DNA of 64,000 nucleotides, from positions 7,068,001-7,132,000 of the forward strand of contig OZ024749.1 of the NCBI GenBank assembly GCA_964016885.1, in the 5' to 3' direction. The position numbers and the translations under genes are program-made. Source of the DNA: Eledone cirrhosa. Taxonomy: Eukaryota. Positions 5,284 to 58,463 of this stretch are shown one piece after another. The notes below the pieces were generated by a model. That model was not told the origin of the DNA. It was given only the letters and a program-made list of their open reading frames with translations, and did not search any database. The stretch's first letter is position 1, and the number at the start of each line of letters is the position of its first letter.

Positions 5284-5416
5284 TATGGAACTCATTTAAC
5301 CATCTTTTGATCTTATATATTATGTATACTCCAGTCCTACAAACTGTAGAGTGCTTCTTATCCGATATCTGCATTGCTTTATTGTACTACAATAAAACAC
5401 CTCCTACATATATATG

Positions 5417-5453
<37 letters not shown>

Positions 5454-5533
5454 GCAAATTAGGCTGCTCAGCAGTTAATATGCATAAGGAAAGTAAATAC
5501 TTTCACACATTCAACCATCTGGCAGGAAGGTGT

Positions 5534-5576
5534 ATGTTGCTGACGATAGCTAATAAGCTTGAAACTAGTACAGCGT
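5534..5576 (+). ncRNA. Minimal hammerhead ribozyme (H0, copy 1)
   Basis: ATGTTG-CTGACGA-TAGCTAATAAGCTT-GAAA-CTAG-TA-CAGCGT. Confidence 0.85.
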
Positions 5577-5970
5577 TCCTTTGTCACTGTTGAACAAATG
5601 AGCAACGATGGTTGCTAGACACTATACGGCTTAATTCAGGATGTTAGTTTACAAACACACCGAGCATTATAATAAATGTTCGGTGAATCCATACGTACAT
5701 ATATATATGTGTGCATGTATGTATATATATATATATATTTACATACTACTGTACGTCTGTATACATATATGCATGTACGTATACATACTTATATTTAAGT
5801 AACAGCCGTACTAAGAGCGAGAAATGAAATTTCGTTTCATTCTTTCCATTTATCGTTTTCGGTACCCCGGCCGATTATCTCACTCGATATGCAAATTAGG
5901 CTGCTCAGCCGTTAATATGCATAAGGAAAGTAAATACTTTCACACGTTCAACCATCTGGCAGGAAGGTAT

Positions 5971-6013
5971 ACGTTGCTGATGATAGCTAATAAGCTTGAA
6001 ACTAGTACAGCGT
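5971..6013 (+). ncRNA. Minimal hammerhead ribozyme (H0, copy 2)
   Basis: ACGTTG-CTGATGA-TAGCTAATAAGCTT-GAAA-CTAG-TA-CAGCGT; 437 nt after copy 1. Confidence 0.88.
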
Positions 6014-6152
6014 TCCTTTGTCAGTGTTGAACAAACGAGCAACGATGGTTGCTGGACACTACGGCTTAATAAAGGATGTTTGTTTACAAACACACCGAGC
6101 ATTATAATAAATGCTCGGTGAATCCATACGTACATATATATATGTGTGCATG

Positions 6153-6186
<34 letters not shown>

Positions 6187-6189
<3 letters not shown>

Positions 6190-6621: not shown

Positions 6622-6654
<33 letters not shown>

Positions 6655-8888: not shown

Positions 8889-8915
8889 CTATGTATAATA
8901 TACATGTATATATAA

Positions 8916-9331
8916 ATAATATAAGATCAAAAGATGGTTAAAACAGTTCCAAGTATTTTATTATGCGCATTTCAAAAACAAATATCATCATGAGATGATA
9001 TCTGCGTTTTCATCAGATAAAATAGGGATACATGATATGAAGGTTAAAAAACACTTGTGAATAGTGAAGTTTTAAATCAACATATGAAGACAACTTCACT
9101 ATTCACAAGTGTTTTTTAAATTTCTTTTCATGAATCCCTATTTTATCTTATGAAAACGCAGATATCTCATGATGATATTTGTTTTTGAAATGCGCGTAAT
9201 AAAATACTTGGAACTCTTTTAACCATCTTTTGATCTTATATTATTTATACTGCAGTCCTACAAACTGTAGAGTGCTACTTATCCGATATTTGCATTGCTT
9301 TATTGTACTACAATAAAACTCACCTCCTACA
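8916..9331. mobile_element. Foldback H1 element (minus HHR 8954-9024 intact; plus HHR core mutated to CTTATGA)
   Basis: Homologous to 4997-5408 with the same geometry. Confidence 0.8.
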
Positions 9332-9579
9332 TGTATATATAGATATATAGATATATAATATACCCCTACATATATGATATAGATATATGTAATATACATA
9401 TAATATAATCATCATCATCGTCATGATATATTCATGTAGATGATGTAAAAAATATATAAGCTATATATATAAAAATATACATAGCTCTACATATATATTA
9501 TACATACATACATATATAATATACATGCATAATATATATATACACGTAACATATACATATATATATATTTATTTGTTGT

Positions 9580-12030: not shown

Positions 12031-12169
12031 ACGTCTGTGTCAGGCTCCTCTATCTTCATGAAACCTTTGGTAAATGAAATAATTACCTTATGTTGTTTAT
12101 TACATAACTAAAAGGCTCTGTAGCCTACATAGAGCACTCTCTTTTCCTTTACCTTTCCTACGGAAACAC

Positions 12170-12207
<38 letters not shown>

Positions 12208-12213
<6 letters not shown>

Positions 12214-12662
12214 ATTAAATAAATGGAAACTATATTTATAAAACCATATTTATTTCATTATATATATTTCAGGGATATCATATTAACAATATGCTATGCC
12301 TTCCTCAGACAAAATACAATATAAACAGTTTTATAGATAAATAGATTTGACATACCGTAACAACATCGACTTGTATTTGAAAAGTTGAATTGGCAATTCA
12401 ACTTTTCAAATACAAGTCGATGTTGTTACGGTATGTCAAATCTATTTATCTATAAAACTGTTTATATTGTATTTTGTCTGAGGAAGGCATAGCATATTGT
12501 TAATATGATATCCCTGAAATATATATAATGAAATAAATATGGTTTCATAAATATAGTTTCCATTTATTTAATATTGTAAATATACTCCAAATACTTGTCG
12601 AGTGCTTTTATATCAGTTATAAATATTTACTAGTTGTAACCCAACAATTTAAATATAACTTT

Positions 12663-12664
<2 letters not shown>
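12208..12664. mobile_element. Foldback pLTR element, family H2 (371-bp near-perfect palindrome plus 3' tail)
   Basis: Arms 12208-12392 and 12394-12578; both carry an HHR; flanked by (TA)n. Confidence 0.85.
12470..12535 (+). ncRNA. Minimal hammerhead ribozyme (H2)
   Basis: TATTTTGT-CTGAGGA-AGG..CCT-GAAA-TATATA-TA-ATGAAATA; mirror copy at 12251-12316 (-). Confidence 0.8.
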
Positions 12665-12707
<43 letters not shown>

Positions 12708-16287: not shown

Positions 16288-16352
16288 TTAAGGATGTATG
16301 AAAAATAAAAAAAACAACTATGCTGAATAAGCTATAGCGTTCAGTTAATCAC

Positions 16353-16662
16353 AATTAAACCCATTCGTTACCACATATCTAATGAAAATTAAACCCATTC
16401 GTTACCACATATCTAATGAAAATTAAACCCATTCGTTACCACATATCTAATGAAAAAAATTAAACCCATTCGTTACCACATATCTAATGAAAAAAATTAA
16501 ACCCATTCGTTACCACATATCTAATGAAAAAAATTAAACCCATTCGTTACCACATATCTAATGAATTAAACTTATTCATTACCATATATCTAATGAATTA
16601 AACCCATTCGTTACCATATATCTAATGAAAATTAAACTTATTTGTTACCACATATCTAATGA
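16353..16662. repeat. ~36-bp minisatellite (~9 copies)
   Basis: AATTAAACCCATTCGTTACCACATATCTAATGAA unit. Confidence 0.9.
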
Positions 16663-16904
16663 AAGACACTGCTTATGATGTTCAAATAATTTTGATAATA
16701 ATCAAGAAAAGATTTATTAACATAACTAAATTTCAGCCATTGGAACATAACATAAAGGTTCTTATGTAGAATTCTGATAAGAAAGTATATGAACACTTTA
16801 AAACAAATAGTATTGTAACAGAGAAACAGGAACAGTTTTTAATAGGTTAACCCTTTAACATTCACATTATGTACCCCAGCCCCACAGCATAGGTTAGTCG
16901 TTAG

Positions 16905-18659
16905 TGATATCAACGAATGGGAGAGAGAGAAATTACTCTTAGTAGGTCTGACAGAGGTACCAGCTATTGAGATTGACGAATATAGGGTCCAAGAGGCGAT
17001 TAAGGAAATGAAAAATGGTAAGGCTGCTGGACCATCGGGAATAGTTGCTGAGATGCTGAAGGCATCAGGGGCGTAGGCACTAAACTGGTTGCACGCATCA
17101 TCAATCAGGCTATATATGGTGGTGTCATACCCAAAGACTGGTGCAGCAGTATTCTCATAAATTGCTACAAAGGTAAAGGGGATGCTCTGGAGAGGAGCAA
17201 TTATAGGGGTATGAAACTAATGGATCAGGTTATGAAAGTGGCAGAAAGGATATTAGCACAACTAATTAGAGAAAGAGTCAAACTAGATGAGATGCAGTTT
17301 GGTTTTGTGCCTGGGAAGAGTACAACAGATGCCCTCTTCTTGGTGAGACAATTGCAAGAGAGATTCTTAGAGAAAAATAAGCCACTATACTTAGCCTTTG
17401 TTGACCTAGAGAAGGCCTTTGATAGGGTAGCCCGATCTGTCATCTGGTGGTCCCTAAGGAAGCTAGGTATTGAGGAATGGCTTGTGAGGACAGTGCAAAC
17501 TTTGTACAGAGGTACTCTCAGTAAAGTCAGGGTAGGAATGGAGTTTAGTGAGGAATTCCAGATACATGTACATCAAGGTTCGGTTCTCAGCCTGCTCTTG
17601 TTCATTATAGTCCGCCAAGCCATAACAGAGGAGTTTAAGACTGGCTGTCCATGGGAACTTCTCTATGCTGACGATCTGGTTCTTATAGCAGAATCAGTAG
17701 AGGAGCTAGAGAATAAATTCTGGCTATGGAAACAGCAGTTGGAAGCAAGAGGACTGAGAGTGAACCTAGCTAAGACAAAAGTGTTGATGAGTAGAAAAGA
17801 GGACAAAACTCTGATACCATCAGGGAAATGGCCAAGTTCGATATGCAGAAAAAGAACTGGCATAAATTCTATAAAATGCACACAATGTAGATCCTGGGTA
17901 CACAAGAGATGTAGCGGGATAGCAGGCAAACTAACAGGTAGGGAGAAATATGTATGCAGTAGATGTACAGGGAAATTAAACAGTAGAAGTCGCATTGATA
18001 GACAGATTTTTCCAATGCAGGAGGGGGCTATAGAAGTGGTGGATAGCTTCTGGTACCTAGAAGATCAGATTAGCATGGGAGGAGGGTGTTCCGAGGCCAT
18101 AGTATCTAGAATAAGGACGGGTTGGAAGAAGTTTAGGGAGCTGCTTCCTCTGCTGACGAAGAAGGGTTTCTCCCTGCGTACGAAAGGCCGGTTGTATGAT
18201 GCCTGTGTGAGGAACGCGATGCTGCATGGTAGTGAGACATGGGCAGCAACTGCAGAGGATATGCGATGGCTGGAGAGAAATGAGGCAAGCATGCTCCGTT
18301 GGATGTGCAGTGTAAATGTGCATGAACGACCCAGCATAAATGTGTTGATAGAGAAACTGTATCTGAGAGGGATAGAATGTAGTGTACGGGAGAGGAGACT
18401 GAGGTGGTATGGACATGTGATGCGCATGGAGGATGACCGCTGGGTGAAGAAGTGCCAGGAAATGCCAGTTGAAGGAAGACGTGGTAGAGGTAGACCACGA
18501 AAAACATGGGCGGAGGTGGTGAGAACAGACCTCAGATCATTGAAGCTCACGGTGGAGATGACGAGGGACCGTGACGAGTGGAGAGATGCTGTGCTGAATA
18601 AGACCCCTCCCACCCTTGCAAGCAGGGAAAAGCGGACGTAAAATGATGATGATGATGAT
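16905..18659 (+). mobile_element. RTE-clade LINE family 1, 5'-truncated
   Basis: MKNGKAAGPSGI upstream (stop/frameshift), RT ORF, (GAT)n tail. Confidence 0.92.
17211..18641 (+). CDS. RTE reverse transcriptase, C-terminal part, with Cys/His-rich insert (probably non-functional copy)
   Basis: [44 protein letters not shown]. Confidence 0.88.
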   Translation: MKLMDQVMKVAERILAQLIRERVKLDEMQFGFVPGKSTTDALFLVRQLQERFLEKNKPLYLAFVDLEKAFDRVARSVIWWSLRKLGIEEWLVRTVQTLYRGTLSKVRVGMEFSEEFQIHVHQGSVLSLLLFIIVRQAITEEFKTGCPWELLYADDLVLIAESVEELENKFWLWKQQLEARGLRVNLAKTKVLMSRKEDKTLIPSGKWPSSICRKRTGINSIKCTQCRSWVHKRCSGIAGKLTGREKYVCSRCTGKLNSRSRIDRQIFPMQEGAIEVVDSFWYLEDQISMGGGCSEAIVSRIRTGWKKFRELLPLLTKKGFSLRTKGRLYDACVRNAMLHGSETWAATAEDMRWLERNEASMLRWMCSVNVHERPSINVLIEKLYLRGIECSVRERRLRWYGHVMRMEDDRWVKKCQEMPVEGRRGRGRPRKTWAEVVRTDLRSLKLTVEMTRDRDEWRDAVLNKTPPTLASREKRT

Positions 18660-23178: not shown

Positions 23179-23818
23179 ATCATTTTACGTCCACTTTTCC
23201 CTGTTTGCAAGGGTGGGACGGGTCTTATTCAGCACAGCATCTCTCCACTCGTCACAGTCCCTCGTCATCTCCACTGTGAGCTTCAATGATCTGAGGTCTG
23301 TTCTCACCACCTCCGCCCATGTTTTTCATGGTCTACCTCTACCACATCTTCCTTCAACTGGCATTTCCTGGCACTTCTTCACCCATCGGTCATCCTCCAT
23401 GCGCATCACATGTCCATACCACCTCAGTCTCCTCTCCCGTACACTACATCCTATCCCTCTCAGACACAGTTTCTCTCTCAACACATTTATGCTGGGTCGT
23501 TCACGCACATTTACACTGCACATCCAACGGAGCATGCTTGCCTCATTTCTCTCCAGCCGTCGCATATCCTCTGCGGTTGCTGCCCATATCTCACTACCAT
23601 GCAGCATCGCGCTCCTCACACAGGAATCATACAACCGGCCTTTCGTACGCAGGGAGAAACCCTTCTTCGTCAGCAGAGGAAGCAGCTCCCTAAACTTCTT
23701 CCAACCCATCCTTATTCTAGATACTATGGCCTCGGAACACCCTCCTCCCATGCTAATCTGATCTCCTAGGTACCGGAAGCTATCGACCACTTCTATAGCG
23801 CCCTCTCGCATTTGAAAA
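23179..23818 (-). mobile_element. RTE family 1, 3' fragment
   Basis: Close match to 18010-18650. Confidence 0.92.
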
Positions 23819-24393: not shown

Positions 24394-24970
24394 CATACAT
24401 ACACATACACATATATATATATATATATATACATATATATACATATACATATATATACATATACAGTTGAAAGAACTTGACTGCTATTTCTAGTTGTCGA
24501 TAATCCTATTCACGCCACTGGGTTGAAGCTGGTACAATGTGTGTATTTTTAAAAAAATGCAACACGTCCTGCTAGTCATTCGCAGATTTGAATTTGCTGT
24601 GTAAACATAGATAGTTAAATCTTCTCCCTTGTTGAAAATCCGAATTTGGCTACTGTGGTTTACCGATCGATTAATGGTGAAATATATTTCTTCAATGAAA
24701 TATATACAAGGAAGATTAATCATTTTAAAAGGTATCTATATTTGAAGTTCTAGTTAAACTTTAATTAGTTACCTACCTAGCTATATGTGCTTACACACTT
24801 TTACAAATTATTCCCTGTGATTGTTTCATATGTTTATTTTATATATATATATATGTCAATCAATTTCTAGTTCATATAAAATGCTCGGATCTATTCATTG
24901 GAATCTTTCAGCTTATTCTACAGTGGATATGGCGCATGTCTCTCAGACATTTTGGATATATATATATATA

Positions 24971-25458
24971 TATGTTGATTTAAAACTGCACTATCCACAA
25001 GTGTTTTTAATCTTCATATCATGTCCTCCTATTTTATCTGATGAAAACACAAATGTTATTGCATGATGATATTTGTTTTTGAAATGCGCATAATAAAATA
25101 CATGGAACTCATTTAACCATCTTTTGATCTTATATATTATACAAGGTTAACGTATGTTGATGCCCTAAGGTCAGAAACTGGTCTGTTGGAGACGCAGGAC
25201 ATGGCAGCGATAATGAGGGACAGAGACCGCTGGAGAGAACTCGTCCATGGATCTCGTGAATTTTACCCGCCTTAGATAGATAGATATATATAATATAAGA
25301 TCAAAAGATGGTTAAAAGAGTTCCAAGTATTTTATTATGCGCATTTCAAAAACAAATATCATCATGGGATGATATCTGCGTTCTCATCAGATAAAATAGG
25401 GAGACATGATATGAAGCTTAAAAAACACTTGTGAGCAGTAAAGTTTTAAATCAACATA
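24971..25458. mobile_element. Two H1 arms, tail-to-tail (HHRs 25030-25100 + and 25328-25398 -), separated by a LINE 3' fragment
   Basis: Both cores CTGATGA..GAAA-TGCGCA-TA intact; 25141-25275 encodes MRDRDRWRELV, an RTE-like end. Confidence 0.8.
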
Positions 25459-25768
25459 TATATATATATATATTTCACACGCTGTCCACACGTGTCACCA
25501 AACATCTATTGCATAACTACAAGGCACCGGTCTGATTCTTTGTAATTTTATTTTTAATTTTTTTATTTTATTTTATTTTATTTTAAACCCCAAAACTTTC
25601 CGGACTTTCGCAGTTATTTCCCTTATTTCCCTTATTTCGCAGTTATTTATATAAACATATATATATATATACACATATATATATATATACACATATACAT
25701 ATATATACACATATACACATATACACATATATATATATATACACATATACACATATATATATACACAT

Positions 25769-26400: not shown

Positions 26401-26576
26401 ATTATATATATATATACACATATTATTAATGTTCGATATAACCAATATGTCTGTATATATGTGTGTGTGTGTGTATATACATATATATATATATATATAT
26501 ATGTGCGTACGTATGCATACTAATATATACATATATACGAACACACTCACACACATATATATATATATATATATAT

Positions 26577-26767
26577 AATGAAGGAGGTGTGGTAAGGAAC
26601 CAGGTGGACCATAACGCACCAGAGTACTCAATACTTAGGGTAGTAGAGTGGGTAATAGGAAAATGTTTGACCCCGACGGCAGAGCTCAAGCCGTTTTGAC
26701 GGCTATTTCTGGACACAGAAATAGCCGTCGAAATGGCTTGAACTCTGCCGTTGGGGTCAAACATTTT

Positions 26768-26772
<5 letters not shown>
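26577..26772. mobile_element. Foldback H5 element
   Basis: Inverted arms 26655-26711 and 26716-26772. Confidence 0.7.
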
Positions 26773-26949: not shown

Positions 26950-26987
<38 letters not shown>

Positions 26988-26990
<3 letters not shown>

Positions 26991-27191
26991 ATAATAATAA
27001 AATTGAAGACTAAAATCCAAAGAGGGCTCGATAAGGAAAATATATATCAAAATATATAAGAACCGAAGAGCAAATATTTATTAATATAACAGATTAAAGT
27101 TTAAGCAAAGAATCGCTGCTTTCACCCTTAACGGGATCTTCTGGTGAAAGCAGCGATTCTTTGCTTAAACTTTAATTTGTTATATTAATAA

Positions 27192-27195
<4 letters not shown>
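26988..27195. mobile_element. Foldback element, family H7
   Basis: Arms invert near 27143; minus core CAGAAGA-TCCCGTTAAGGGT-GAAA. Confidence 0.7.
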
Positions 27196-27230: not shown

Positions 27231-28295
27231 AACATATATATCTCAGTTTCCCTATATTCCCTCTCCAAAATTTCACTGATATGGTATTAGTCAATGAAAG
27301 AGTACAGTTTCAGACATATAGAGCTCAGTGTGACTGAACCTGAAGCCATGTGGTTACATAGTGAAATCCTCAGCCACACAGCTATACCCAGTACATATAG
27401 TACATTTATTGTATTGTAATAATTATTTAATACATTCTGTGCAGTGATATTGTTTGCTGGAACTTATGTTATTTGGCAATCAAATCATTCACTGCTGCAT
27501 ACCGACATCATCATCATCATCGCCATTTAATGTCCTTTCTACCTGCTAGTAAGGGTTGGACAATATATGCTGTGGAAGCTAAGTGGCTTGTTTCCACAAT
27601 GCTCTTAAATTCTTTAATTGTATTGCTCATTCGGAAAGAGCTAAGTGAGTTATTTGCACAATGCTCTTAAATTCCATAACCATTTCTTGGCTGCACTATG
27701 TATAATTTACAAAGTCTGTGCGAGTCCACCAGATCAGCTTTACAACCACCCCTCTCACTCTACATATTCACCACCCTCTCTGATTTCACTCAAATCTGCT
27801 TTTAGTTGAAATCATCTCTCATTCTTTATTACTACTGCTACACACTCTCTCACTTTCTATTTTTCTTTCTCCAGCTTCAGACCTTGTAAAAGTTCTCTCT
27901 TCCTCATTACTTTCTTTCTATCAGTTGGCTTATGTCTTTTATTAGTGAAGGTTCCCCGTCTCCACTGCTCTCACTTCCTCCTCCTCCGCCATTCCATTTC
28001 TCTCTCTCCTCTCTTAATTCAGACCTTGTCAAAGGTGAAACTACTAATTTCTCTCTCAATATCATCTCTCTATCACAGACTTGGCTTATATCTTCTATAA
28101 GTTGAAACTAGCTTTCCCCCCCCCCCTCTACCCTCCCACTTTCCCCCAAAATCAAAAACTCTTTCATTTTGTATTAACTTTTCTTCCCAGACTTTACATT
28201 TCTTCATCGAACCAGTATTCTAGTCTATTTCAATGAATTCTTTCTTTTTCTTCCCAAACTTTATTCCAAGAACATGGTCTATTTTTGTTTTTCTT

Positions 28296-29368: not shown

Positions 29369-29444
<76 letters not shown>

Positions 29445-29531
29445 ACACTGGAAGGCAATATCCGTAGTGGTAGAGCACTCAGTCCATGGGACGAGTTAGG
29501 TAGAAGTGGTTACACAACAGTTAGTTCACCA

Positions 29532-29574
29532 TACCGAGAACAATTGTTTCACCTTACCGGATCCTCAGCTCGTA
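29532..29574 (-). ncRNA. Minimal hammerhead ribozyme (H6) in foldback element 29444-29643
   Basis: Reverse complement: CGAG-CTGAGGA-TCCGGTAAGGT-GAAA-CAATTG-TT-CTCG. Confidence 0.8.
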
Positions 29575-29695
29575 TTGGCCGAGGATCCGCTAAGGTGAAA
29601 CAATTGTTCTCGGTATGGTGAACTAACTGTCGTGTTACCACTTATATATATATATATATATAAACTAACTGGTGTATTACCTTTTCAACATATTG

Positions 29696-29743
<48 letters not shown>

Positions 29744-29769
29744 TGTGTGAGTCCTGGGTTCAATCGGGG

Positions 29770-29932
29770 GGTAACCACAGTGAATAAGGTACTCAATACA
29801 TTAGTAGAGTGTAAACAACAAATCTAATATAGAAATGGCTTCTACAGGACTAGAACTGTTTCATTTGAAGAGCTTTCCTGATGATTTCCTTTGAATGAAA
29901 CAGTTCTAGTCCTGTAGAAGTCATTTCTATAT
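29770..29932. mobile_element. Foldback element, family H4 (partial hammerhead)
   Basis: Arms ~29828-29866 and ~29894-29932; CTGATGA..GAAA-CAGTTCTAG-TC; helix I not recoverable. Confidence 0.55.
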
Positions 29933-30086
29933 CAATTATATATCTATATCCTATTAGGTTCTTATATCTATTTATTCTTTTAATTGAGTTTTGTGAACCA
30001 TATTATTTTAATCAGTATTTTCTTCACCCTGGCAGTTTCTGTCCCTTGTGACATATATAGTCATAAATTTATCTCTCTTTACTGTG

Positions 30087-30127: not shown

Positions 30128-30496
30128 TGTTAGGAAGGGCATCCAGCTGTAGAAATCAAGCCAAAATCAGTTCCCGTATGAGCAAGACAAGGTCACCCGA
30201 CCTGGCATTGCCCACAACAGAAACAAACCGTCTAACCCATGCTAGCGTGGAAGAATGGACGTAAAACGGTGATGATGACAATATATATATATATATATAT
30301 ATATATAGTATAAAAGAGAAAACACAGGTAAGCATTAAGAGAAGGATTTTATCCAGGTATTTACGACCGTTTCATTGGTAAGTGCAACCTTATATTGCTA
30401 TACTGCAAATAGCACCCACTCAATTATAATTGTTGTTCACAATCCAAATTTTCAAAATGTTCTGCTTCCCTAACTATATATATATATATATATATC

Positions 30497-30968
30497 TATA
30501 ATTAAATGACAGGAGGCTGGATTTCTGTAAATCCTTGAAAGGTTTATTATACTATGATCATTTCAATGACCGGGTTCCGTATGAATCCGGTGATATCATC
30601 AGGTATTCAAAATATAATACGTGAATGTAACAGATAAAATCCATGGGGCTGAAAATCAAGGACCCGAGGGCGACTGCCATCCAGCATCTTCTACCTTTGC
30701 CGGTCGCCCGAATACCTGATGATATCACCGGATTCATACGGAACCCGGTCATTGAAATGATCATAGTATAATAAACCTTTCAAGGATTTACACAAATCCA
30801 GCCTCCTGTCATTTCATTATAATATTTAACTCCGTAATAGCACCACCAACTACAAAAACAAAGACGGTTGAACTGCTTTACGTTGAGTACTCTCTGTATT
30901 ATTACATTGCGATTGACCATACGAAATTGACCAGCTCTATCCAGTGGTGAACCTCAAACCTGAATAAA
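30497..30968. mobile_element. Foldback element, family H3
   Basis: Arms 30497-30608 and 30710-30821 plus tail; flanked by (TA)n. Confidence 0.8.
30712..30769 (+). ncRNA. Minimal hammerhead ribozyme (H3)
   Basis: ATAC-CTGATGA-stem II (ACCGG..CCGGT)-GAAA-TGATCA-TA-GTAT; mirror copy at 30549-30606 (-). Confidence 0.82.
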
Positions 30969-31124
30969 TATATATATCTATATATAGACACACACACATG
31001 CAGCAGGGTTCTGCACAATCAATGCCAACAAATTTTCCCCAGATGGCTCAGTAGAACCAAGGAATGATAGAGGACAGTAAACCAAGTTGCTGTACAATGA
31101 AATTGAACCTAGAAACACTTGGTT

Positions 31125-31382: not shown

Positions 31383-31641
31383 CACTCACAGATCCATAAG
31401 TATAAATGGTGGTGTCCTGCTTTGACCAGTTTTGCTCAATGACTGAAAGAATTAAAATAATCAGAGATATCTTTCAAATTATAAATGTGAGGAAAGAATA
31501 GATCCTATATATATATATACATATATATATAGTAATAATAATAAATATGAAGACTAAAATCGAAAGAGGGCTCGAAAAGGATAAATATATATCAAATATA
31601 TAAGAACCGGAGAGCAAATATTTATTAAAATAACACATTAA

Positions 31642-31692
31642 AGTTTAAGCAAATAATCGGTGCTTTCATTCTTAACAAGATCTTCTGAAACT
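31642..31692 (-). ncRNA. Hammerhead variant (H7, CAGAAGA core)
   Basis: Reverse complement: AGTTT-CAGAAGA-TCTTGTTAAGAAT-GAAA-GCA..TGC-TT-AAACT. Confidence 0.6.
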
Positions 31693-32282: not shown

Positions 32283-32315
<33 letters not shown>

Positions 32316-32535
32316 GGAACAAGTAGGACCCCGACGGCTGAGCTCAAGCCATTTCGACGGGTAATTCTGGAATAAAATGTCTAGAATTAGCTAGATTTTA
32401 GTCCAGAATTAGCCATTGAAACGGCTTGAGCTCAGCCGTCGGGGTCCTACTCATTCCTATTACCCACTCTACTACTGTAAGTATTGAGTACTTTGGTGCG
32501 TTATGGTCCATCTGGTTCCTTACCACATTTCCTTC

Positions 32536-32538
<3 letters not shown>
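32316..32538. mobile_element. Foldback H5 element
   Basis: GAAA-CGGCTTGAGCTCAGCCG-TC on the plus strand; inverted partial copy on the left. Confidence 0.7.
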
Positions 32539-44938: not shown

Positions 44939-45448
44939 ATATCATGTATAACACAACTTGTCCTCCAGAAATATCATATATAACACAACTTGTCCTCCAG
45001 ATATATCATATGTAACACAACTTGTCCTTCAGATATATCATATGTATCACAACTTGTCCTCCAGAAATATCATATATAACACAACTTGTCCTCCAGATAT
45101 ATCATGTATAACACAACTTGTCCTCCAGATATATCATGTATAACACAACTTGTCCTCCAGAAATATCATATATAACACAACTTGTCCTCCAGATATATCA
45201 TATATAACACAACTTGTCCTCCAGATATATCATATATAACACAACTTGTCCTCCAGATATATCATATATAACACAACTTGTCCTCCAGATATATCATATA
45301 TAACACAACTTGTCCTCCAGATATATCATATATAACACAACTTGTCCTCCAGATATATCATATATAACACAACTTGTCCTCCAGATATATCATATATAAC
45401 ACAACTTGTCCTCCAGATATATCATATATAACACAAATTGTCCTCCAG
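44939..45448. repeat. 32-bp minisatellite (~16 copies)
   Basis: ATATATCATATATAACACAACTTGTCCTCCAG unit. Confidence 0.95.
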
Positions 45449-46603
45449 ATGGAGTGCTCTACCGACTTGGATATTTATTACAAAATTCAACTACACTATA
45501 TAAATGTGTGTGTGTGTATGTACACTGATCTTTGCTCTCATAGAACCATACGTCACACATGTCATTAGACATAGTGTGTTGTGGGTGAGGATGATTACAA
45601 GATAACAACCATTTCTCAAAGTAAAACTTTCTGAACATGTCAAATAATGAAACGATCATCTTCACAAAATGACTTCACAGCATTTAACTGTTTAATTTTA
45701 ATTTAAATCTTGCTTTTATTTTCCTCATGTCGCGGCAGTGAGGAATAAAAGTAATTTAAGCATATTTATGTATTTACATATTTGTTAAAATAAATCTTTG
45801 TATTTTCAAATTGCAAAAGAAAAAAACAAAAATAATAACAACAACAATAATAATAATAATAATAATAATAAAGATAATATAAATCATGAGATACTCTCCT
45901 TGATGGACATTTTAATATATTCAATTTCCTTATTTAAATATCTTTTTACTTTGCATACATAATTATTTTGAAAGAAATTTTAATGTTTTTACATGTCTCA
46001 TTTTGTATAGTTTTATATATTTTATACATATATATTTTTCCGTTTTTCATTATAACAGTCTGCATTATTTTCGATTATTCTTAATATATTTGCAGATTTG
46101 AAGTTTTGTAGGAATAATAAATACCAAACTCCACTAAGAAGAAAGGAATAAATGTTGTAATATTTATTCATGCATATAGATTAAATAGTAAATCGATGTA
46201 CGGTGAATGTTGTTGTTCTACAGTGTTAAATATTTTACTTTTAGGTACACTGTTATTAACAAAATATGACATATATGTGTGTACATGCCAGAGAAGAGAT
46301 AGCTTTAGTGTTCAATTTATGTTGCCATGTGTAGGACAGCGTAAGGAATGCATACAAAAAAACACAAACACATATATATATATATATATCATCATAATCG
46401 TTGATTAAAGTCTATCTTCCACATTAGCATGGGTTAGATGGGTTTGTCCCATTTATAGGCAAGTTGGGTCGGGTGACCATGTTTTGCTCATATTTTGCAA
46501 GCAGGGAAAAGTGGACGTAAAATGAAATGATGATGATATACATACAGTCAGTAAGGTTAGAATTAACAATGAATATTGTGAAGAATTTAGTGTAAAAGTT
46601 GGT

Positions 46604-48058
46604 GTTCATCATGTCCTTAGCCCCCTCCTATTTATTATTGCCCTTCTGGCTATAACAGCGGAGTTCAAGACCGGCTGACCATGGGACCTTCTATATGCAG
46701 ATGATCTAACTCTCATAGCTGAATCTATAGCTGAACTAGAGAAGAAATTCCAAATATGGAAGCATGGCCTAGAATCAAAAGGCCTTAAAGTTAACTTGTC
46801 AATGACTAAAGTTCTAGTTTGTAGAAAGGAAAATAGGTCACAGGTGCCCTCAGGGAAATGGCCATGCTCAGTGTGTAGGAAAGAAGTAGGCAGAAATTCC
46901 ATTTTATGTCCCAAATGCAAATTATGGGTACATAAAAGATGTAGTGGGATCACAGGTAAGCTATCTAAGAACATAGATTTTATATGTGGCCGATGCTCAG
47001 GTGCAATAAGTAGCAAGTGCCCACAGGATACTAGCTCCTTCTATTGCCCAGATGGTTCTATAGAAATAGTGGACACCTTCCGTTTCCTGGGTGACAAAAT
47101 CAGCAGTGGTGGAGGGTGTTCTGAAAATACAGTAGCTAGAGTCAGAACGGGATAGAAAGAGTTCAGAGAGCTTATACCGCTATTGGCCACAAAAGGTTTC
47201 TTTCTAAAAATGAAAGGCAGATTGTATGATGCCTGTATATGAACAGCAATGCTACATGGTAGTGAGACATGGGCATTACGTGCAGAGGACCTGCGCAGAC
47301 TGGAAAAGAATGAAGCATGCATGCTCCGTTGGATGTGTAATAGTAATATACGTGAACGGCAAAGCATAAATGAACTAAGTGAGAAATTAGGAATAAGAGG
47401 GATCAGATGCTGTTTACTTGAGAGAAGACTACGTTGGTATGGCCACGTGATGTGCATGAAAGGCGACAGCTGTATAAAAAAGTTCAGGGCGATCAAAATT
47501 GTTGGTAGTTTCGGAGTAGGTAGACCCAGAAAAACCTGGGACGATCAGATAAATTATGACCTTACACACTTGCACCTCTCTAAGACAATGTCACTGGACC
47601 GAGATCTTTGGCGCTATGCAGTAATACAGAAGACCAGCCTTGCCTATGTACAAAGCGAAACCTAGTTAGTAGGCACCTCTTAACCAAATATACACCGCAA
47701 TCCACTACCCCTAACCTATCCTCCCACTCCCACCACTCTCTCTCTGTAAAGTTGGTACCACAACATTCAGTCCAAATAAATGAGATAATGAGATCGAGAT
47801 CATGTAGGTATCACGACAAAAAGAAACACAGTCCACACTGTAATGTGGCCATGTAGGTAACACGGTAAAGAGTTCCCAGTTCCACACTGTAAATGTGGTT
47901 GCTGTTAGGAAGGGCATCCAGCCATAGAAAACCTGCAAGATAGTCCTATATGAGTGAGACACGGTCACCCGACCAACCTTGCCTCAAGTGGGACAACTCC
48001 CGTCTAACCCATGCTAGCGTGGAAGATGGATGTTAATCGAAGATGATAATGATGATGA
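46604..48058 (+). mobile_element. RTE family 2, 5'-truncated, with in-frame stops
   Basis: [37 protein letters not shown]; long 3' UTR. Confidence 0.92.
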
Positions 48059-48490
48059 TTAGATATATATATATATATATGAGTAAGTATGTTTTGAAAC
48101 AGTGAGCAGGTTTGAAATTAGAAAATAGAATAGCTTTCACCGTATTTTTGACTAAAGAAATTTTAGCCTGATAATGGGGTTTAGAAACCCTCAGATAAAT
48201 GGAAAAAGATGAGTATTGATGTACATCAATACTCATCTGTAGTATAAAAGAGGTCGTAGACTAATGTTCTCTAAGAGAACATTAGTCTACGACCTCTTTT
48301 ATACCATAAACGTGGTTTTGTCTTTGCGTGTAATTGTTTTTCACCGCTCCTATTAATGACGTATTATATTCGTTTATTCCTGTTCTTTGCCAGGGAACGT
48401 TTCCACGAACCAAAGTATCGTCTTCCTGTCCTCCTCCGGTTGCAACGTTTTTTTAAATATTCACTTCTGCGTTTACAGATTGACTTTGTT

Positions 48491-48541
48491 AGTTTCAGAA
48501 GATCCCGTTAAGGGTGAAAGCAGCGATTCTTTGTTTAAACT
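48491..48541 (+). ncRNA. Hammerhead variant (H7, CAGAAGA core)
   Basis: AGTTT-CAGAAGA-TCCCGTTAAGGGT-GAAA-GCAG..TTGT-TT-AAACT. Confidence 0.65.
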
Positions 48542-48557
48542 TTAATCTGTTATTTTA

Positions 48558-48588
<31 letters not shown>

Positions 48589-48769: not shown

Positions 48770-50397
48770 TTCAGTGTTATAGACACATCATCTGTCATAT
48801 CTCCCCCCAGTTGTTCAGTGTTATAGACACCTCGTCTGTCATATCTCCCCCCAGTTGTTCAGTGTTATAGACACCTCGTCTGTCATATCTCCCCCCAGTT
48901 GTTCAGTGTTATAGACACCTCGTCTGTCATATCTCCCCCCAGTTGTTCAGTGTTATAGACACCTCGTCTGTCATATCTCCCCCCAGTTGTTCAGTGTTAT
49001 AGACACATTGTCTGTCATATCTCCCCCCAGTTGTTCAGTGTTATAGACACCTCGTCTGTCATATCTCCCCCCAGTTGTTCAGTGTTATAGACACATCATC
49101 TGTCATATCTCCCCCCAGTTGTTCAGTGTTATAGACACATCATCTGTCATATCTCCCCCCCCCCAGTTGTTCAGTGTTATAGACACCTCATCTGTCATAT
49201 CTCCCCCCAGTTGTTCAGTGTTATAGACACATCGTCTGTCATATCTCCTCCCCCCCAGTTGTTCAGTGTTATAGACACCTCATCTGTCATATCTCCCCCC
49301 AGTTGTTCAGTGTTATAGACACATCGTCTGTCATATCTCCTCCCCCCCCAGTTGTTCAGTGTTATAGACACCTCGTCTGTCATATCTCCCCCCAGTTGTT
49401 CAGTGTTAGACACATTGTCTGTCATATCTCCCCCCAGTTGTTCAGTGTTATAGACACATTGTCTGTCATATCTCCCCCAGTTGTTCAGTGTTATAGACAC
49501 CTCGTCTGTCATATCTCCCCCCAGTTGTTCAGTGTTATAGACACCTCGTCTGTCATATCTCCCCCAGTTGTTCAGTGTTAGAGACACCTCGTCTGTCATA
49601 TCTCCCCCCAGTTGTTCAGTGTTATAGACACCTCGTCTGTCATATCTCCCCCCAGTTGTTCAGTGTTATAGACACCTCGTCTGTCATATCTCCCCCCAGT
49701 TGTTCAGTGTTATAGACACCTCGTCTGTCATATCTCCCCCCAGTTGTTCAGTGTTAGAGACACCTCGTCTGTCATATCTCCCCCCAGTTGTTCAGTGTTA
49801 GAGACACCTCGTCTGTCATATCTCCCCCCAGTTGTTCAGTGTTATAGACACCTCGTCTGTCATATCTCCCCCCAGTTGTTCAGTGTTATAGACACATTGT
49901 CTGTCATATCTCCCCCCAGTTGTTCAGTGTTATAGACACCTCGTCTGTCATATCTTCCCCCAGTTGTTCAGTGTTATAGACACCTCATCTGTCATATCTC
50001 CTCCCCCCCAGTTGTTCAGTGTTATAGACACATCGTCTGACATATCTCCCCCCAGTTGTTCAGTGTTATAGACACCTCGTCTGTCATATCTCCCCCCAGT
50101 TGTTCAGTGTTAGAGACACCTCGTCTGTCATATCTCCCCCCAGTTGTTCAGTGTTATAGACATCTCGTCTGACATATCTCCCCCCAGTTGTTCAGTGTTA
50201 TAGACACATCATCTGTCATATCTCCCCCCCCCCCAGTTGTTCAGTGTTAGAGACACCTCGTCTGTCATATCTCCCCCCAGTTGTTCAGTGTTATAGACAT
50301 CTCGTCTGACATATCTCCCCCCCCCCCCAGTTGTTCAGTGTTATAGACACCTCATCTGTCATATCTCTCCCCAGTTGTTCAGTGTTATAGACACATC
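48770..50397. repeat. 44-bp minisatellite (~37 copies)
   Basis: GTTGTTCAGTGTTATAGACACCTCGTCTGTCATATCTCCCCCCA unit, no spacers. Confidence 0.96.
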
Positions 50398-54234: not shown

Positions 54235-56672
54235 TTTCTTTTATTTGCCACTAGGGCATCAAAAGTGGGACAAGTACAAAGGGGGGAGTTTACACAAAAA
54301 GGCGTCCTCAATAAGGAGGAGGCAATAACAAAATATAAAAATAAAATAAGATATAACAAAAAATAAAATTTTTAACAAAATCCTCAATAGAGAGGAGGCG
54401 CCTTGGGGGGGTCGCACACACCCCCGAAAAAAGTGTGCAACCCTTCTCCTCAGGAGCACAGAGAAGGGGTGCTCCCTTGGTCTTTCATCTTCCTCACCTA
54501 TAGTCTGATGTAGAGTGAAGGCCCATTCACACAGGCCATTCTCGCCACTTTCACCCATCTTTCATAGAAACGGCTGGGGTGCAGCACCTCTCTCTCCATC
54601 CTGATCCTTCTTCCGAAATGATATCGGAAGAAACGGACCAGTTGTTGGCCAGAGAGAAAGGTGCCCGACCTCAGTCCTTTCAGACGCGTCCACCATACAA
54701 CCTCTTTCGCCATGGCTATTACGCACAGAAACACCGCCTCTGCTTCATCTTTGAAGGGGGGAGGCGGCTTGATCATTACAATAGACTCGGTGGTCAACCG
54801 GATCGGTCCCACCCTTGACAGCAGTTGTTCGACATAGCCCCACAGATCGGCTACGCCCGAGCAGTGTACTAATGCGTGTGCAACGGTTTCCTCGTCGCAC
54901 ACGCTTCTGGGACAGATCTTTTTGGCGGGGTCCCTACCCGGGCGCCCGTGTCTGTAGAGCCTTTCTCGAACGGGTAAAGCCCCTCGGTAGCACTGCCAGG
55001 CCAGGGACTTCTGGAAGTTGTCCATAGGTCCCGGGCTGAATGTCCTACCGAACAGGCTGGCCAGTTCGTCCTCCTCCATGTCTAGGGCTTCTCCGAGGGC
55101 GTCGTCGCACCTGCTGCATACCAGCCCTCTATAGAATGTTGCGGTGGAGTCTCCACTGATAACCGGATCCGCCTGCCAGAGGGCGGTGAGCGCCTGGGCA
55201 CACTCAGTGTGCCAGGCGCCCAGTTTTCTCGGTCTTTGCTTGACCCAGGATTGCAGCTCGGTGAGTGAGACGAGTCTGGGAAAGGTTCGTCTCACAAACG
55301 AGGCCCACACCGGTTGTCCGGTGAGGAATACGTAGAGGTGCCGTAGCCTTAATGCGTGTTTACGCATCATTAGCCACGGCATCCCCAGCCCTCCTTTCGA
55401 AGGGTGTTGACAGCAGATGGATCTCCTCACCATAGGAGCCCGCCTCTTCCAAAGGAATTGGAAGAGCGCGCGCTCCATCTTGGTGAGGGTTTCCCTTGGG
55501 CAGGGCACTACGGTCAGGCGGTAGTAGATGACGGACGCTATGTAGGTGTTCGCCACCTCCGCCCGACCTTTCAGGGATAGTTTGCAACTGGCCCACTTCT
55601 GGGTCAGTGCAAACACCCTGTTCGTAACCTCCGCCCAGTTTTTCTCCACCTGGAGGTCCGGTCCGAACCAGACCCCGAGCAACTTCACCGGGCCCTCCGT
55701 CCAGCGTCCGACGACGCTATCGGAGGGCATCGGTCTGCCCCTCCACGTGCCGAGTTGCAAACCGATCGACTTGTCCCGGTTCAGCTTAGCCCCTGTGAAC
55801 TTTTCGTACTCCTCTAGTAAGGTGCCGACCACCTCGATTTCGGAGGCCGTCGACACCATTACTGTCACGTCATCGGCGTAGGCCGACACCGCTTTCCGCA
55901 ATCCCGGTTCCAAAGGGATGCCCTGCAACAACTCCAACTTCCGCAGTAGTGGCTCGAGAGTCAACCCATACAGAAGGGAGGAGAGAGGGCACCCTTGTCG
56001 GATGGACCGCGCGATTTTGAACGGCTCCGAGAGGTAGCCGTTCACCTTGACCCTAGAGCAGATGCGGCTGCTGTGCATAGCAGTGATCCAGCCCCTGAAA
56101 ACGGGTCCGAAGCCTGCCGCCGCTAGCACCGCATCCAGGTAACCATGGTCGACCCTATCGAACGCCTTAGATTGATCCAAGTTGATCAGAGCCCCACCAA
56201 AGCCGGGTTCGTTCCCAACCCTCTCTATGATGTATCGCATGAGGTGGAGGTTGTCATGGATGGACCTGGACGGGATAGCGCATGTCTGCGCATCTCCCAC
56301 CAGGTTGCCCACGACAAGCGCCAACCTCTTTGCTAGCACCTTGGCCAAAATCTGTAACTCTGTATTTAGCAGTGTTATGGGCCTGAAGTTACTTATTTCG
56401 TCCCCCTTGTTCTCATCCTTCCTCACTAGCGTGACTACGCCCTTGGTCACAGTACAGGGAATTCTCCCGTTCTGTTGCCAGTTGCAGTAGACCGCCTCGA
56501 GGAGATCGGGGAACAAGTCCGGCATAGCTAGATATAATTCGTAAGGAAGACCATCGAGACCCGGGGATTTGCGTTTGCCGCATTGGCTCAGCACGTCCTC
56601 TATCTCAGCGGCCGAAATCGGCTCCTCGCAGGACTTCGCCTCCCTGTCCGAGAGGCGCGGCAGGCCGTCGAG
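54235..56672 (-). mobile_element. Tx1/L1-clade LINE, 5'-truncated, embedded in GATA/GA microsatellite
   Basis: GC-rich; uninterrupted ORF2; 3' end GCAAATAAAAGAAA abuts (TCTA)n. Confidence 0.9.
54498..56672 (-). CDS. Tx1-type ORF2 fragment (RT plus C-terminal Cys/His region), ~724 aa, endonuclease missing
   Basis: KSPGLDG, NFRPITLLN, LDQSKAFDRVDH, IRQGCPLS, AYADDV, ETVAHALVHC. Confidence 0.9.
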   Translation of the reverse strand, partial: LDGLPRLSDREAKSCEEPISAAEIEDVLSQCGKRKSPGLDGLPYELYLAMPDLFPDLLEAVYCNWQQNGRIPCTVTKGVVTLVRKDENKGDEISNFRPITLLNTELQILAKVLAKRLALVVGNLVGDAQTCAIPSRSIHDNLHLMRYIIERVGNEPGFGGALINLDQSKAFDRVDHGYLDAVLAAAGFGPVFRGWITAMHSSRICSRVKVNGYLSEPFKIARSIRQGCPLSSLLYGLTLEPLLRKLELLQGIPLEPGLRKAVSAYADDVTVMVSTASEIEVVGTLLEEYEKFTGAKLNRDKSIGLQLGTWRGRPMPSDSVVGRWTEGPVKLLGVWFGPDLQVEKNWAEVTNRVFALTQKWASCKLSLKGRAEVANTYIASVIYYRLTVVPCPRETLTKMERALFQFLWKRRAPMVRRSICCQHPSKGGLGMPWLMMRKHALRLRHLYVFLTGQPVWASFVRRTFPRLVSLTELQSWVKQRPRKLGAWHTECAQALTALWQADPVISGDSTATFYRGLVCSRCDDALGEALDMEEDELASLFGRTFSPGPMDNFQKSLAWQCYRGALPVRERLYRHGRPGRDPAKKICPRSVCDEETVAHALVHCSGVADLWGYVEQLLSRVGPIRLTTESIVMIKPPPPFKDEAEAVFLCVIAMAKEVVWWTRLKGLRSGTFLSGQQLVRFFRYHFGRRIRMEREVLHPSRFYERWVKVARMACVNGPSLYIRL

Positions 56673-56815
56673 GATAGAGAGATAGATAGAAAAGATAGAG
56701 AGATAGATTGAGAGAAAGATAGAGAGAAAGATAGAGAGAAAGATAGAGAGATAGAGAGAAAGATAGAGAGATAGAGAGAAAGATAGAAAGATAGAGAGAA
56801 AGATAGATAGATATG

Positions 56816-56913
56816 TTTCTTTATTTGCCACAGGGGCATACAAAAATGGGACATTACAAGACGTGACGGCGGGGGTTTTACATAAAAATCATATAAGTCT
56901 AACATTAATAAAT
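56816..56913 (-). mobile_element. Second Tx1-like 3' terminus
   Basis: Reverse complement GTCCCATTTTTGTATGCCCCTGTGGCAAATAAAGAAA, homologous to 54235-54280. Confidence 0.7.
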
Positions 56914-57581
56914 ATAGATAGAAAGATAGATAGATAGAAAGATAGATAGAAAGATAGATAGAAAGATAGATAGAAAGATAGATAGAAAGATAGATAGAAA
57001 GATAGATAGAAAGAGAGAGAGAGAAAGGAAGAACACAACAATGTACATTATTCATCACTTTATGATACTATATTTTTTTTGTTTTTCCTTTGTTTTTGTT
57101 TTGTTTATTTTTGTTTTACACTTTCTTATAATCACGAGAAAAAGATATCTAGAAAATATTTTAGACTTGAAAATATGAGACCCCCCCCCACACACACACA
57201 GAGCCAAACCTCATAAAACAAAAAAAAAAAAAACATTAAAAAAAAATAAAGAAAGTCAAGTCAAAAAACCTATTTGTAATATCTTATTTTCTCATTTTGG
57301 TATATTTATTATTTAGAGAGAGATTTTGACTGATACTTCACACATTATTTTAGATATTAATAAAAACAGAATACTGAGAGAATATTTTTAAAGGACATTA
57401 GCTTCTGCAAATATATTTTGCAATTAAGTTTGATTTTTTCCTATTTATTTGTTTGTTTGTTTGTTTTTAATTCCATCTTTCATTCAATCCTTTGCAGAAT
57501 CTTATAATGCTGAAATGTTGATATTATCTGTGTTAAGGAATATTTGGTAAATAATGTCTGTAAAAATATTGAAAATATATA

Positions 57582-58194
57582 TCATCATCATTTTATGTCC
57601 GCTTTTCCCTGCTTGCAAGGGTGGGAAGAGTCCTATTAAGTACAGCATCTTTCCACTTGTTACGGTCCTTCGTCATCTCCTCCGTGAGCTTCAGCGATCT
57701 TAGGTCAGCTCTCACCACCTCCGCTCATATTTTTTGTGGTCTTCCTCTACTGCGTCTTCCTTCTACTGGGATTTCTTGGCACATCTTTACCCAGTGGTCG
57801 TCCTCCATGCACATCACATGTCCATACCAACGCAGTCTTCTCTCCCGTGCACTACAGTTTATCCCTCTTATACAAGTTTCTCTCTCAACTCGTCTATGCT
57901 TGGTCATTCAGGCACATTGACATTGCACATCCAACGGAGCATGCTTGCTTAATTTCTCTCCAGCCGTAGCATATCCTCTGCAGTTGCTGCCCATGTGTCA
58001 CTACCATGCAGCATCGCACATCTCAAACAAGCATCATATAACCGGCCTTTCATTCGTAGGGAGAAACCCTTCTTTGTCGACAGAGGAAGCAGCTCCCTAA
58101 ACTTCTTCCAACCCATCATTATTCTAGATACTATGGCCTTGGAGCAACTTCCTTCCTTGCTAATCTGATCACCTAGGTATTGGAACCTATCAAT

Positions 58195-58198
<4 letters not shown>
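57582..58198 (-). mobile_element. RTE family 1 3' fragment
   Basis: Sequence and translation match. Confidence 0.9.
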
Positions 58199-58283
<85 letters not shown>

Positions 58284-58463
58284 GCAAAAGTTTTATTTAA
58301 GATTGTTGGGTTACAATGAGTAAATATTTTATAACTGATATAAAAGCACTCGACAGTTTCTGGAGTAGGTTTACGATATTAAACTACCAAATCAACTTTT
58401 TAAAAGGAAGTTGCATTATTACAAGGTATGTCACTAATTATTTATAAAACAGCTTATGTATTG

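Follow-up and report, generated by a model that had tools for sequence, protein, structure and literature searches.

Hairpin-bearing insertions in the Eledone cirrhosa window

We analyzed a 64-kb stretch of the Eledone cirrhosa genome (here the window: 64,000 nucleotides, positions 7,068,001 to 7,132,000 of contig OZ024749.1, assembly GCA_964016885.1), in which several families of short insertions carry the same small hairpin, composed of RCTC, an inner stem, a short 3' bulge, and GAGY. An earlier note on this sequence listed eight such hairpins in families H1 to H7, and all of them (8/8) are located at the coordinates and with the arms that it gave. The families are assigned below to Penelope-like elements (PLEs) of the Hydra type. 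Most hairpin-bearing units in the window are head-to-head inverted pairs within (TA)n, in which one arm stops just before the hairpin (a tailless arm) and the other continues through it (a tailed arm); no open reading frame (ORF) fragments of the PLE type with reverse transcriptase (RT) and GIY-YIG domains are present within the window. The hairpin of these copies is referred to as hairpin 1, and the insertions are as follows.

2252..2404 (-): tailed arm of the H5 family, with hairpin 1 at 2306-2329, ending in (TA)n
4991..5156 (-): inverted tailless H1 arm, stopping just before hairpin 1
5152..5409 (+): tailed H1 arm with a minimal type I hammerhead (cleavage after 5275), hairpin 1, and tail
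5328..5352 (+): hairpin 1 of H1
8906..9332: second head-to-head pair of H1 arms, tailless at 8906-9088 (-) and tailed at 9092-9332 (+), the latter having a decayed hairpin at about 9249-9273
12049..12173 (+): tailed arm of H8, an eighth family, with hairpin 1 at 12115-12135
12202..12395 (-): inverted tailless H2 arm with hammerhead (cleavage at 12259)
12391..12665 (+): tailed H2 arm with hammerhead (cleavage after 12527), hairpin 1 at 12584-12603, and tail
24970..25459: two tailless H1 arms, tail-to-tail, at 24970-25140 (+) and 25284-25459 (-); both have a hammerhead and stop short of hairpin 1
26572..26772: head-to-head pair of H5 arms, tailed at 26572-26714 (-), where 26626-26649 is hairpin 1, and tailless at 26716-26772 (+)
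26985..27195: head-to-head pair of H7 arms; the minus-strand arm is tailed (hairpin 1, 27026-27071) and the arm at 27143-27195 (+) is tailless
29442..29646: head-to-head pair of H6 arms; the minus-strand arm is tailed (hairpin 1 with a 1-nt bulge, 29477-29496) and the arm at 29578-29646 (+) is tailless
29743..29935: head-to-head pair of arms of H4, an older family; the minus-strand arm is tailed (hairpin 1, 29791-29810) and the arm at 29877-29935 (+) is tailless
30489..30970: head-to-head pair of H3 arms; the minus-strand arm, from 30489, is tailless and the plus-strand arm is tailed (hairpin 1, 30829-30888)
31529..31692 (-): second H7 tailed arm, with hairpin 1 at about 31570-31615 and its first inner pair mismatched
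32313..32538: head-to-head pair of H5 arms; the arm at 32313-32376 (-) is tailless and the plus-strand arm is tailed (hairpin 1, 32466-32489)
48346..48565 (+): tailless H7 arm, stopping 3 nt before hairpin 1
58287..58578: head-to-head pair of arms of an H2 subfamily, tailed at 58287-58383 (-), where 58348-58366 is hairpin 1, and tailless at 58388-58578 (+)

Insertions of different Hydra-type families share (TA)n tracts tail to tail, with H2 beside H8 (12173-12209) and H6 beside H4 (29640-29715), and the same (TA)n pile-ups of different families occur elsewhere in the genome (L059, L073, L261). The idea that the H4 tail is a separate short interspersed nuclear element (SINE) was dropped, as the tail belongs to the H4 family itself.

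A strict pattern (RCTC, at least three inner Watson-Crick pairs, a 1-2 nt 3' bulge, and a complementary GAGY) has ten matches in the window, compared with a mean of 3.5 in 30 block-wise shuffles. All ten are followed by NC after GAGY, as the earlier note had observed, and with this rule added the same shuffles contain a mean of 0.4 matches (maximum 2); the control is lenient, as the strict pattern was derived from these very sites. H7 misses the strict pattern because of its weak inner stem, but is recovered (E 0.06) by a covariance model, which finds 11 family sites in the window at E <=0.6; the model is partly circular, having been trained on 37 hairpins of which 32 are metagenomic and 5 are from E. 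cirrhosa families. H6, with its 1-nt bulge, is absent from the model's 15 window matches. Minimum-free-energy folding reproduces the proposed hairpin at 8/10 sites, the exceptions being H1, for which the register is shifted, and the 26626 site, which folds differently; the energies reach only -2.9 to -13.2 kcal/mol.

These searches extend the earlier list with two H5 hairpins (26626-26649 and 2306-2329, both on the minus strand), an H7 hairpin (about 31570-31615, minus strand), and the decayed H1 hairpin at about 9249-9273. The hairpin of H8 (12115-12135, plus strand) is a high-scoring match of the same layout that also lay outside that list, and was used as a blind test. The genome has 1,268 matches to its pattern, CTGANGA...GAAA is present upstream in 10/25 fetched copies, and the inverted partners stop 5 nt before GCTC in 3/3 printed cases. 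In an Rfam 15 search, none of the 150 matches listed of 257 reached the gathering score; the top matches are microRNA models driven by microsatellite or fold-back sequence.

Assignment to Hydra-type Penelope-like elements

When the genome was searched with H2, inverted arms were seen to end at the hairpin and forward arms to extend about 60 nt beyond it; full-length copies encoding RT and GIY-YIG domains sit elsewhere in the genome. In the autonomous H2 copy (L021; G000:C3:290407500-290415500), two direct H2 copies 3.8 kb apart enclose a 737-aa ORF with YRDD at 352 and a VY...YVG segment near 617-632, which by motif reading is a GIY-YIG endonuclease. The ORF also has RWR at residue 37 (with RW(R/K/I/T) variants in H1, H5, and H7), DKT, changed from DKG, at 118 (DKT is also found in H5 and H7), a CxCx5C linker (CNCRDRSKC at 596), CxxC (CDLC at 694), and CxH (CRH at 721); judged by eye, it lacks a CCHH motif. 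A Pfam search of the ORF matched no family and a PDB sequence search with the protein gave no match; its predicted fold (pLDDT, the predicted local distance difference test, 87) has TERT as the top Foldseek match (E 4.8e-10, TM score 0.34). We note a low-confidence Asn-rich insert at residues 485-513, resembling the N-rich inserts described for rotifer Penelopes in the available text of PMC3846280, and that the H2 3' untranslated region (UTR) has its own (TA)n/(CT)n microsatellites (L021:2081-2320 and 5890-6130).

Most insertion ends are followed by a TA-rich 16-mer (63/70 for H2 and 41/50 for H3, before de-duplication). This ORF motif set, a hammerhead in the pseudo-long terminal repeat (pLTR), and (TA)n insertion are diagnostic of the Hydra clade in the sections available of Craig et al. 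2021 (PMC8557442), and, judged by the ORF motifs and the (TA)n insertion, the window families are truncated, mostly inverted insertions of Hydra-type PLEs. The families had been described as otherwise unrelated; instead, protein identity between the genome families is 39-62% (84% for the sister pair D/D2), and they are therefore paralogues. Units in this genome are 3.3-3.8 kb long, and the H2 family is young and has many intact ORFs: over the first 400 aa, 104 scored matches are 96-100% identical. Tandem monomers that each carry a type I hammerhead, as in retrozymes, were not found in the window, where the copies are inverted pairs or single arms.

A tandem pair of hairpins between the hammerhead and the ORF

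Full-length copies contain two hairpins in tandem between the hammerhead and the ATG, each with the form RCTC-stem-TH bulge-GAGY-RCT, and this arrangement is seen in 10/10 genome families that have a read-through copy. The hairpin noticed earlier is therefore one of a tandem pair, the second member of which lies beyond the window insertions. In full-length H2, hairpin 2 (GCTC...TT-GAGC-GC) starts 7-9 nt past the end of tailed copies and shortly before the ATG, and the H1 tail at 5152..5409 ends about 7 nt before the place of hairpin 2 in full-length copies. In H1 and H5, hairpin 2 was predicted and then found 3-8 nt past the tail end, with patterns in which CTC or GCTC had to follow the tail. 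H3 and H7 have it too, in samples drawn without selecting for it (3/100 rows for H7), and both hairpins occur in five further genome families found by protein search. Hairpin 2 never occurs in the window because it adjoins the copied region just outside, and the window copies, lacking it, therefore look like dead-end truncated insertions rather than self-propagating hammerhead families.

The same arrangement is found in metagenomic elements. From 77 loci, 59 with an N-terminal match and at least 100 nt upstream were grouped into 47 clusters (one near-identical pair, L152 and L153, was left unmerged), at 30-38% protein identity. Within 200 nt before the ORF, at least two motifs are present in 31/47 clusters, one in 13, and none in 3, and the corresponding counts of at least two are 2/456 for control ORF windows and 7/940 for shuffles. 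The reverse-complement control, with at least two motifs in 15/47, is uninformative, the motif being near-palindromic and the pattern requiring just one inner pair. The two hairpins are spaced by 55-83 nt in the metagenome and by 78-167 nt among the genome families; in the metagenome clusters, the N-terminus lies 15-51 nt past the end of hairpin 2.

Strict type I hammerheads in the window number six, all in H1 and H2, with cleavage 73-74 nt upstream of GAGT. A canonical hammerhead is matched by descriptor in H1, H2, and family C, cores were identified by eye in H3, H4, H6, and H8, and a core lies upstream of hairpin 1 in 24/25 metagenome clusters. The H7 core is a U4A variant with position 4 changed (CAGAAGA; L364:1130-1185), as is position 4 in family D (CCGAAGA; L145); H7 could also form a helix III longer than the usual palindromic stub. 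No CTGANGA core is recognised in full-length H5 copies, which have both hairpins, and the association with hammerheads that was proposed earlier is better described as one with the PLE leader. The H5 copies have a long helix-III-like stem after GAAA and form head-to-tail arrays of at least 4 units of 3.54 kb (L367, G000:C1:91476000-91484500); the missing core possibly reflects an unusual ribozyme variant or loss. We also note that the family identity switches inside hairpin 1 at two loci, L137 (H5 to E) and L356 (H4 to H5), and these chimeras suggest template switching or recombination at the common motif.

The inner pairs covary

Metagenome hairpins were extracted by sequence boxes, blind to pairing, and those of the genome itself were located by context. 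In hairpin 1 the outer pair (n=46) is G-C in 37, A-T in 8, and G-T in 1; P1 is Watson-Crick in 45/46 (T-A 28, C-G 17), P2 is paired in 39/45, and P3 in 33/36. Each of P1 to P3 has a permutation p of 0.0005, and the pairing excess is lost in shifted registers. A MAFFT alignment of 37 of these hairpins has 95% of cells paired and a covariation score of 0.442, compared with 0.174 in shuffles (0/500 as high), in keeping with the earlier proposal that the inner stem changes in sequence yet keeps its pairing. On a quick RT tree of 51 rows the P1 labels require 10 changes, with a minimum of 4, and P1 has therefore switched several times.

The CTC/GAG helix is invariant and thus uninformative on pairing. 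The bulge is TT, TC, or TA in 93/94 hairpins, the first T having been required in the metagenome extraction, and the 3' flank of GAGY is mostly RCT. We considered whether GAGYRCTC might be a palindromic double-stranded DNA site, and rejected this as the fourth flank base varies (C in 44/94) and the inner covariation would be unexplained. Hairpin 1 contains 12 G-U and 2 A-C combinations (p 0.013), an excess that gives modest support for a hairpin acting as sense-strand RNA.

Insertions end just upstream of one hairpin or the other

In ten families taken together, 189 of the ends immediately precede hairpin 1 and 192 immediately precede hairpin 2; the median earliest junction is at -8 (hairpin 1) or -7 (hairpin 2), and the latest at -5. 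Of 421 mapped ends, 381 fall within -20..+1 of an RCTC, none lies between +3 of hairpin 1 and -21 of hairpin 2, and 74 copies read through. Among the other 40 rows, one stops at +2, and the remaining 39, probably spurious anchor matches, end at -21 to -43, within or close to the anchor and for the most part outside (TA)n. The H3 sample, drawn without a tail query, has 21 ends at hairpin 1 and 21 at hairpin 2. Ends sit in A/T-rich patches matching the (TA)n flank, and several metagenome contigs have the same junctions into (TA)n. Starts in an AC-rich loop, as in PAc, a Poseidon element from Anolis (Frangieh et al. 2024, PMC11167929), were not seen, the ends lying upstream of the hairpins and 0 in loops.

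One explanation for these patterns is a 5' UTR role of the hairpins in translation, RNA packaging, or ribozyme folding, with the ends set by the adjacent AU-rich microhomology alone. The closeness of hairpin 2 to the N-terminus and the regular presence of a hammerhead core upstream would suit such a role, as would the protein-assisted hammerhead cleavage reported for PAc in the available text of PMC11167929. However, the H2 tail has several AT-rich patches with no ends in them, and the offset stays near 5 nt despite the wide range of hairpin spacing among the genome families; we regard this explanation as highly improbable.

Inverted insertions have one end of each kind

Head-to-head pairs follow a simple rule. 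For H3, 27/27 pairs within 5 kb (100 rows, read by eye) have one tailless end and one that passes through hairpin 1. Eleven families together yield 182 pairs, 3 of which are unclassifiable; of the other 179, 163 are mixed (including ten re-scored H3 rows, for which the flanking sequence reveals a single tailless arm), 13 carry hairpin 1 on each arm, and 3 have it on neither. Twelve of the 13 were refetched and 11 obey the rule, the second tail being an internal read-through copy; the twelfth is L404, the far end of which is unclear. In 6/6 other full-length H2 insertions there is one outer end of each kind. Self-propagating fold-back families were considered as the main route and rejected, as remobilization from hairpin 1 alone is expected to give two-tailless pairs, which are seen in 3/179.

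In 112 mixed pairs compared by arm length, the longer arm is the tailed one in 26 and the tailless one in 27, and the two are about equal in 59; the lengths for H3 are unreliable as its reference unit is rearranged. A whole unit and more can be present in either arm, and in both arms of three insertions (L405, L410/L411, L412/L413). Either arm may thus be the longer, and therefore neither arm was copied from the other, and each needs its own start on the template. This bears on a second explanation, in which a single priming is followed by self-priming or fold-back, possibly on an antisense template, and the other hairpin supplies a stop or processing site that makes the second end. Inverted-junction palindromes have been interpreted as self-priming on an antisense template (PMC3846280, in the part available), and the 59 pairs with about equal arms and an overlap of a few nucleotides would fit. 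Nonetheless, a copied arm cannot extend further upstream than its source, whereas tailless arms are often far longer and have clean junctions (899 vs 193, 874 vs 97, and 372 vs 53 nt); a tailless arm is unable to template a tail, and both arms exceed one unit in the three insertions above. We consider a fold-back origin very unlikely.

A proposed model for two starts per insertion

The earlier note had guessed at a role in RT binding or initiation, and the end positions about 5 nt upstream, together with the covariation, make this the best-supported reading of the sequences. Specifically, we propose that each hairpin probably binds RT and sets a target-primed start just upstream, and that one insertion uses both hairpins, one for each target strand.

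Several observations weigh against this proposal. Genomic ends alone cannot separate an RT start from a nuclease cut. Tail-containing queries were used to draw the samples of H1, H2, H5, and H7, and copies were de-duplicated approximately, by flanking sequence. Hairpin 2 was not found for H4, for H6 (0/25 rows read through), or for H8, where there is one partial candidate only (L394). The inner stem of hairpin 2 is shorter, often with just 1-2 pairs, its P1 hardly varies (CG in 45/48), and it has no G-U excess (6 vs 7); the G-U excess in hairpin 1 is modest and phylogenetically non-independent. Finally, two of five covariation measures fail against shuffles (both-side changes, 171/500; further pair types, 211/500), and the shuffles ignore kinship.

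The main rival is a third explanation, that the GIY-YIG endonuclease recognizes single-stranded or extruded DNA hairpins in a longer cDNA, cuts about 5 nt upstream, and trims the product before joining to (TA)n. The available text of PMC8557442 attributes the tail to endonuclease-mediated resolution, and the D. virilis endonuclease required the tail region for recognition and cleavage (as cited in the available text of PMC11167929). A fixed offset and stem covariation suit DNA as well as RNA, and the lack of a G-U excess in hairpin 2 is also compatible. However, DNA cutting poorly explains why one end is at hairpin 1 and the other at hairpin 2, or why internal hairpin pairs in full-length copies are uncut; the junctions have microhomology to (TA)n, as priming predicts, and hairpin 1 has its sense-strand G-U excess. 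Moreover, the two in vitro RT starts of PAc match its genomic ends (PMC11167929, in the part available), which supports reading ends as starts. We judge hairpin cutting to be unlikely.

The simplest form of the RT-start model is a programmed twin priming. The hairpins would act as sense-strand RNA, and the protein would contact the CTC/GAG helix, which is invariant, together with the T-H bulge and the 3' RCT. A nick would be made in each strand of the (TA)n site, and the nicked end would pair with the short AU patch that lies about 5 nt upstream of the hairpin, from which cDNA would be synthesized while the bound hairpin stays uncopied. A start at hairpin 2 would copy hairpin 1 and produce a tail, and a start at hairpin 1 would produce a tailless end, such that the PLE tail would equal the spacing of the hairpin pair. 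A single ribonucleoprotein having two active sites would prime once per hairpin; the strict pairing suggests one complex on one RNA, in which the trailing enzyme would have to displace the leading cDNA. The two cDNAs, of the same polarity, would be joined head-to-head through microhomology. Leader binding on a transcript starting in the pLTR would give short inverted pairs like those in the window.

Because the primed hairpin would be left uncopied, full-length daughters, and copies of more than one unit, would need a tandem or circularized template, a speculative step. Hammerhead-driven circles are a candidate template, yet H5 arrays form without a recognisable core. In a more elaborate version of programmed twin priming, a two-hairpin RNA loads two RT-endonuclease protomers, each of which primes on one strand of the (TA)n site just upstream of its own hairpin, and the hammerhead provides the circular or tandem template; we offer this tentatively, and give it not quite even credence. 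If true, such a design would explain the tail, the inverted pLTR, and the partial tandem together, and a small portable hairpin could set an RT start anywhere in an RNA.

Other repeats in the window

The window also contains ORF fragments that by motif reading belong to RTE-like non-LTR retrotransposons, at 17052-18641 (+), 23326-23770 (-), 46679-47155 (+), and 61109-61609 (-). A 796-codon open frame at 54498-56888 (-), flanked by GATA-type repeats, reads as an L1/Tx1-like RT, and 58728-59291 (+) as a Tc1/mariner-like transposase fragment. Minisatellites lie at 48770-50394 (period 44 nt), 28287-28924 (55 nt), 44939-45450 (32 nt), and 16346-16664 (37 nt).

Comparison with known systems

PLEs are the closest mobile relatives of telomerase. 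In the Hydra-type elements, a small covarying RNA motif has been kept across elements at 30-40% protein identity, with a fixed offset and a near-strict pairing rule. For annotators, the hairpin rule gives the true boundaries of an abundant class of repeats (about 17,000 pattern matches for H7 alone), and an RT start set by a short internal hairpin would be of interest for RNA-templated insertion tools. The origin of PLE tails and of inverted and tandem repeats is stated as open in the available text of PMC8557442 and PMC3846280, and the PAc study, as available (PMC11167929), describes two internal starts in vitro without a conserved determinant. A tail at one end and two starts are already known; the tandem covarying hairpin, the fixed offset, and the rule of one end at hairpin 1 and one at hairpin 2 appear to be new; no description of the motif or the rule was found in the literature searched, which left most subscription papers and Repbase notes outside its scope.

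The elements here share with the Hydra clade, the C-terminal endonuclease-containing (EN+) PLEs of Craig et al. 2021 (PMC8557442, in the part available), a single ORF for RT and GIY-YIG with RW(K/R), DKT, and CxCx5C, the (TA)n targets, and a tail at one end, as well as, in some families, a canonical pLTR hammerhead. The published units are smaller (<3 kb) and their tails shorter (30-40 nt) than the 3.3-3.8 kb and 78-167 nt found here. Among the consensi available with that paper, inspected by eye, Hydra-1_Ajap has both hairpins, Hydra-2_Ajap and Hydra-2_Amil have hairpin 1, and Hydra-1_Crog has a GCCC/GGGC variant, with no canonical motif in Hydra-1_Amil or Hydra-1_Obim. In the available form of the paper, the main text never uses the word 'hairpin', and the supplement contains neither 'hairpin' nor 'stem-loop'.

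PAc resembles the Hydra-type elements in that its two starts are internal and downstream of the hammerhead and delimit the tail, with an RNA binding determinant in the same region, and in that both strands of AT-rich targets were cut and extended (PMC11167929, in the part available). It differs in belonging to another clade and in starting within one AC-rich stem-loop inside the ORF, and the available text presents no tandem motif, covariation analysis, or rule pairing the starts of an insertion. The non-LTR retrozymes are likewise short and PLE-derived, with a type I hammerhead (PMC7229834 and bioRxiv 10.64898/2026.07.22.740005, as available). Unlike retrozymes, the window copies are head-to-head truncated insertions without hairpin 2, and are not tandem monomers.

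Three further systems offer parallels in mechanism. In telomerase, the protein binds a stem next to an internal template that has a short alignment region; the analogy to telomerase RNA and TERT is functional only, and no RNA homology is claimed, there being no repeat addition here and kilobases being copied. In L1 twin priming, two primings on opposite target strands yield an inversion, with the second priming being a chance internal event and the two cDNAs covering adjacent segments. In the Hydra-type elements, unlike L1, both starts are fixed and the arms overlap. Finally, in stringent pairs of a LINE (long interspersed nuclear element) and a SINE, a conserved 3' stem-loop recruits the RT and is located inside the copied region, whereas the Hydra-type hairpins are located just outside the region that is copied.

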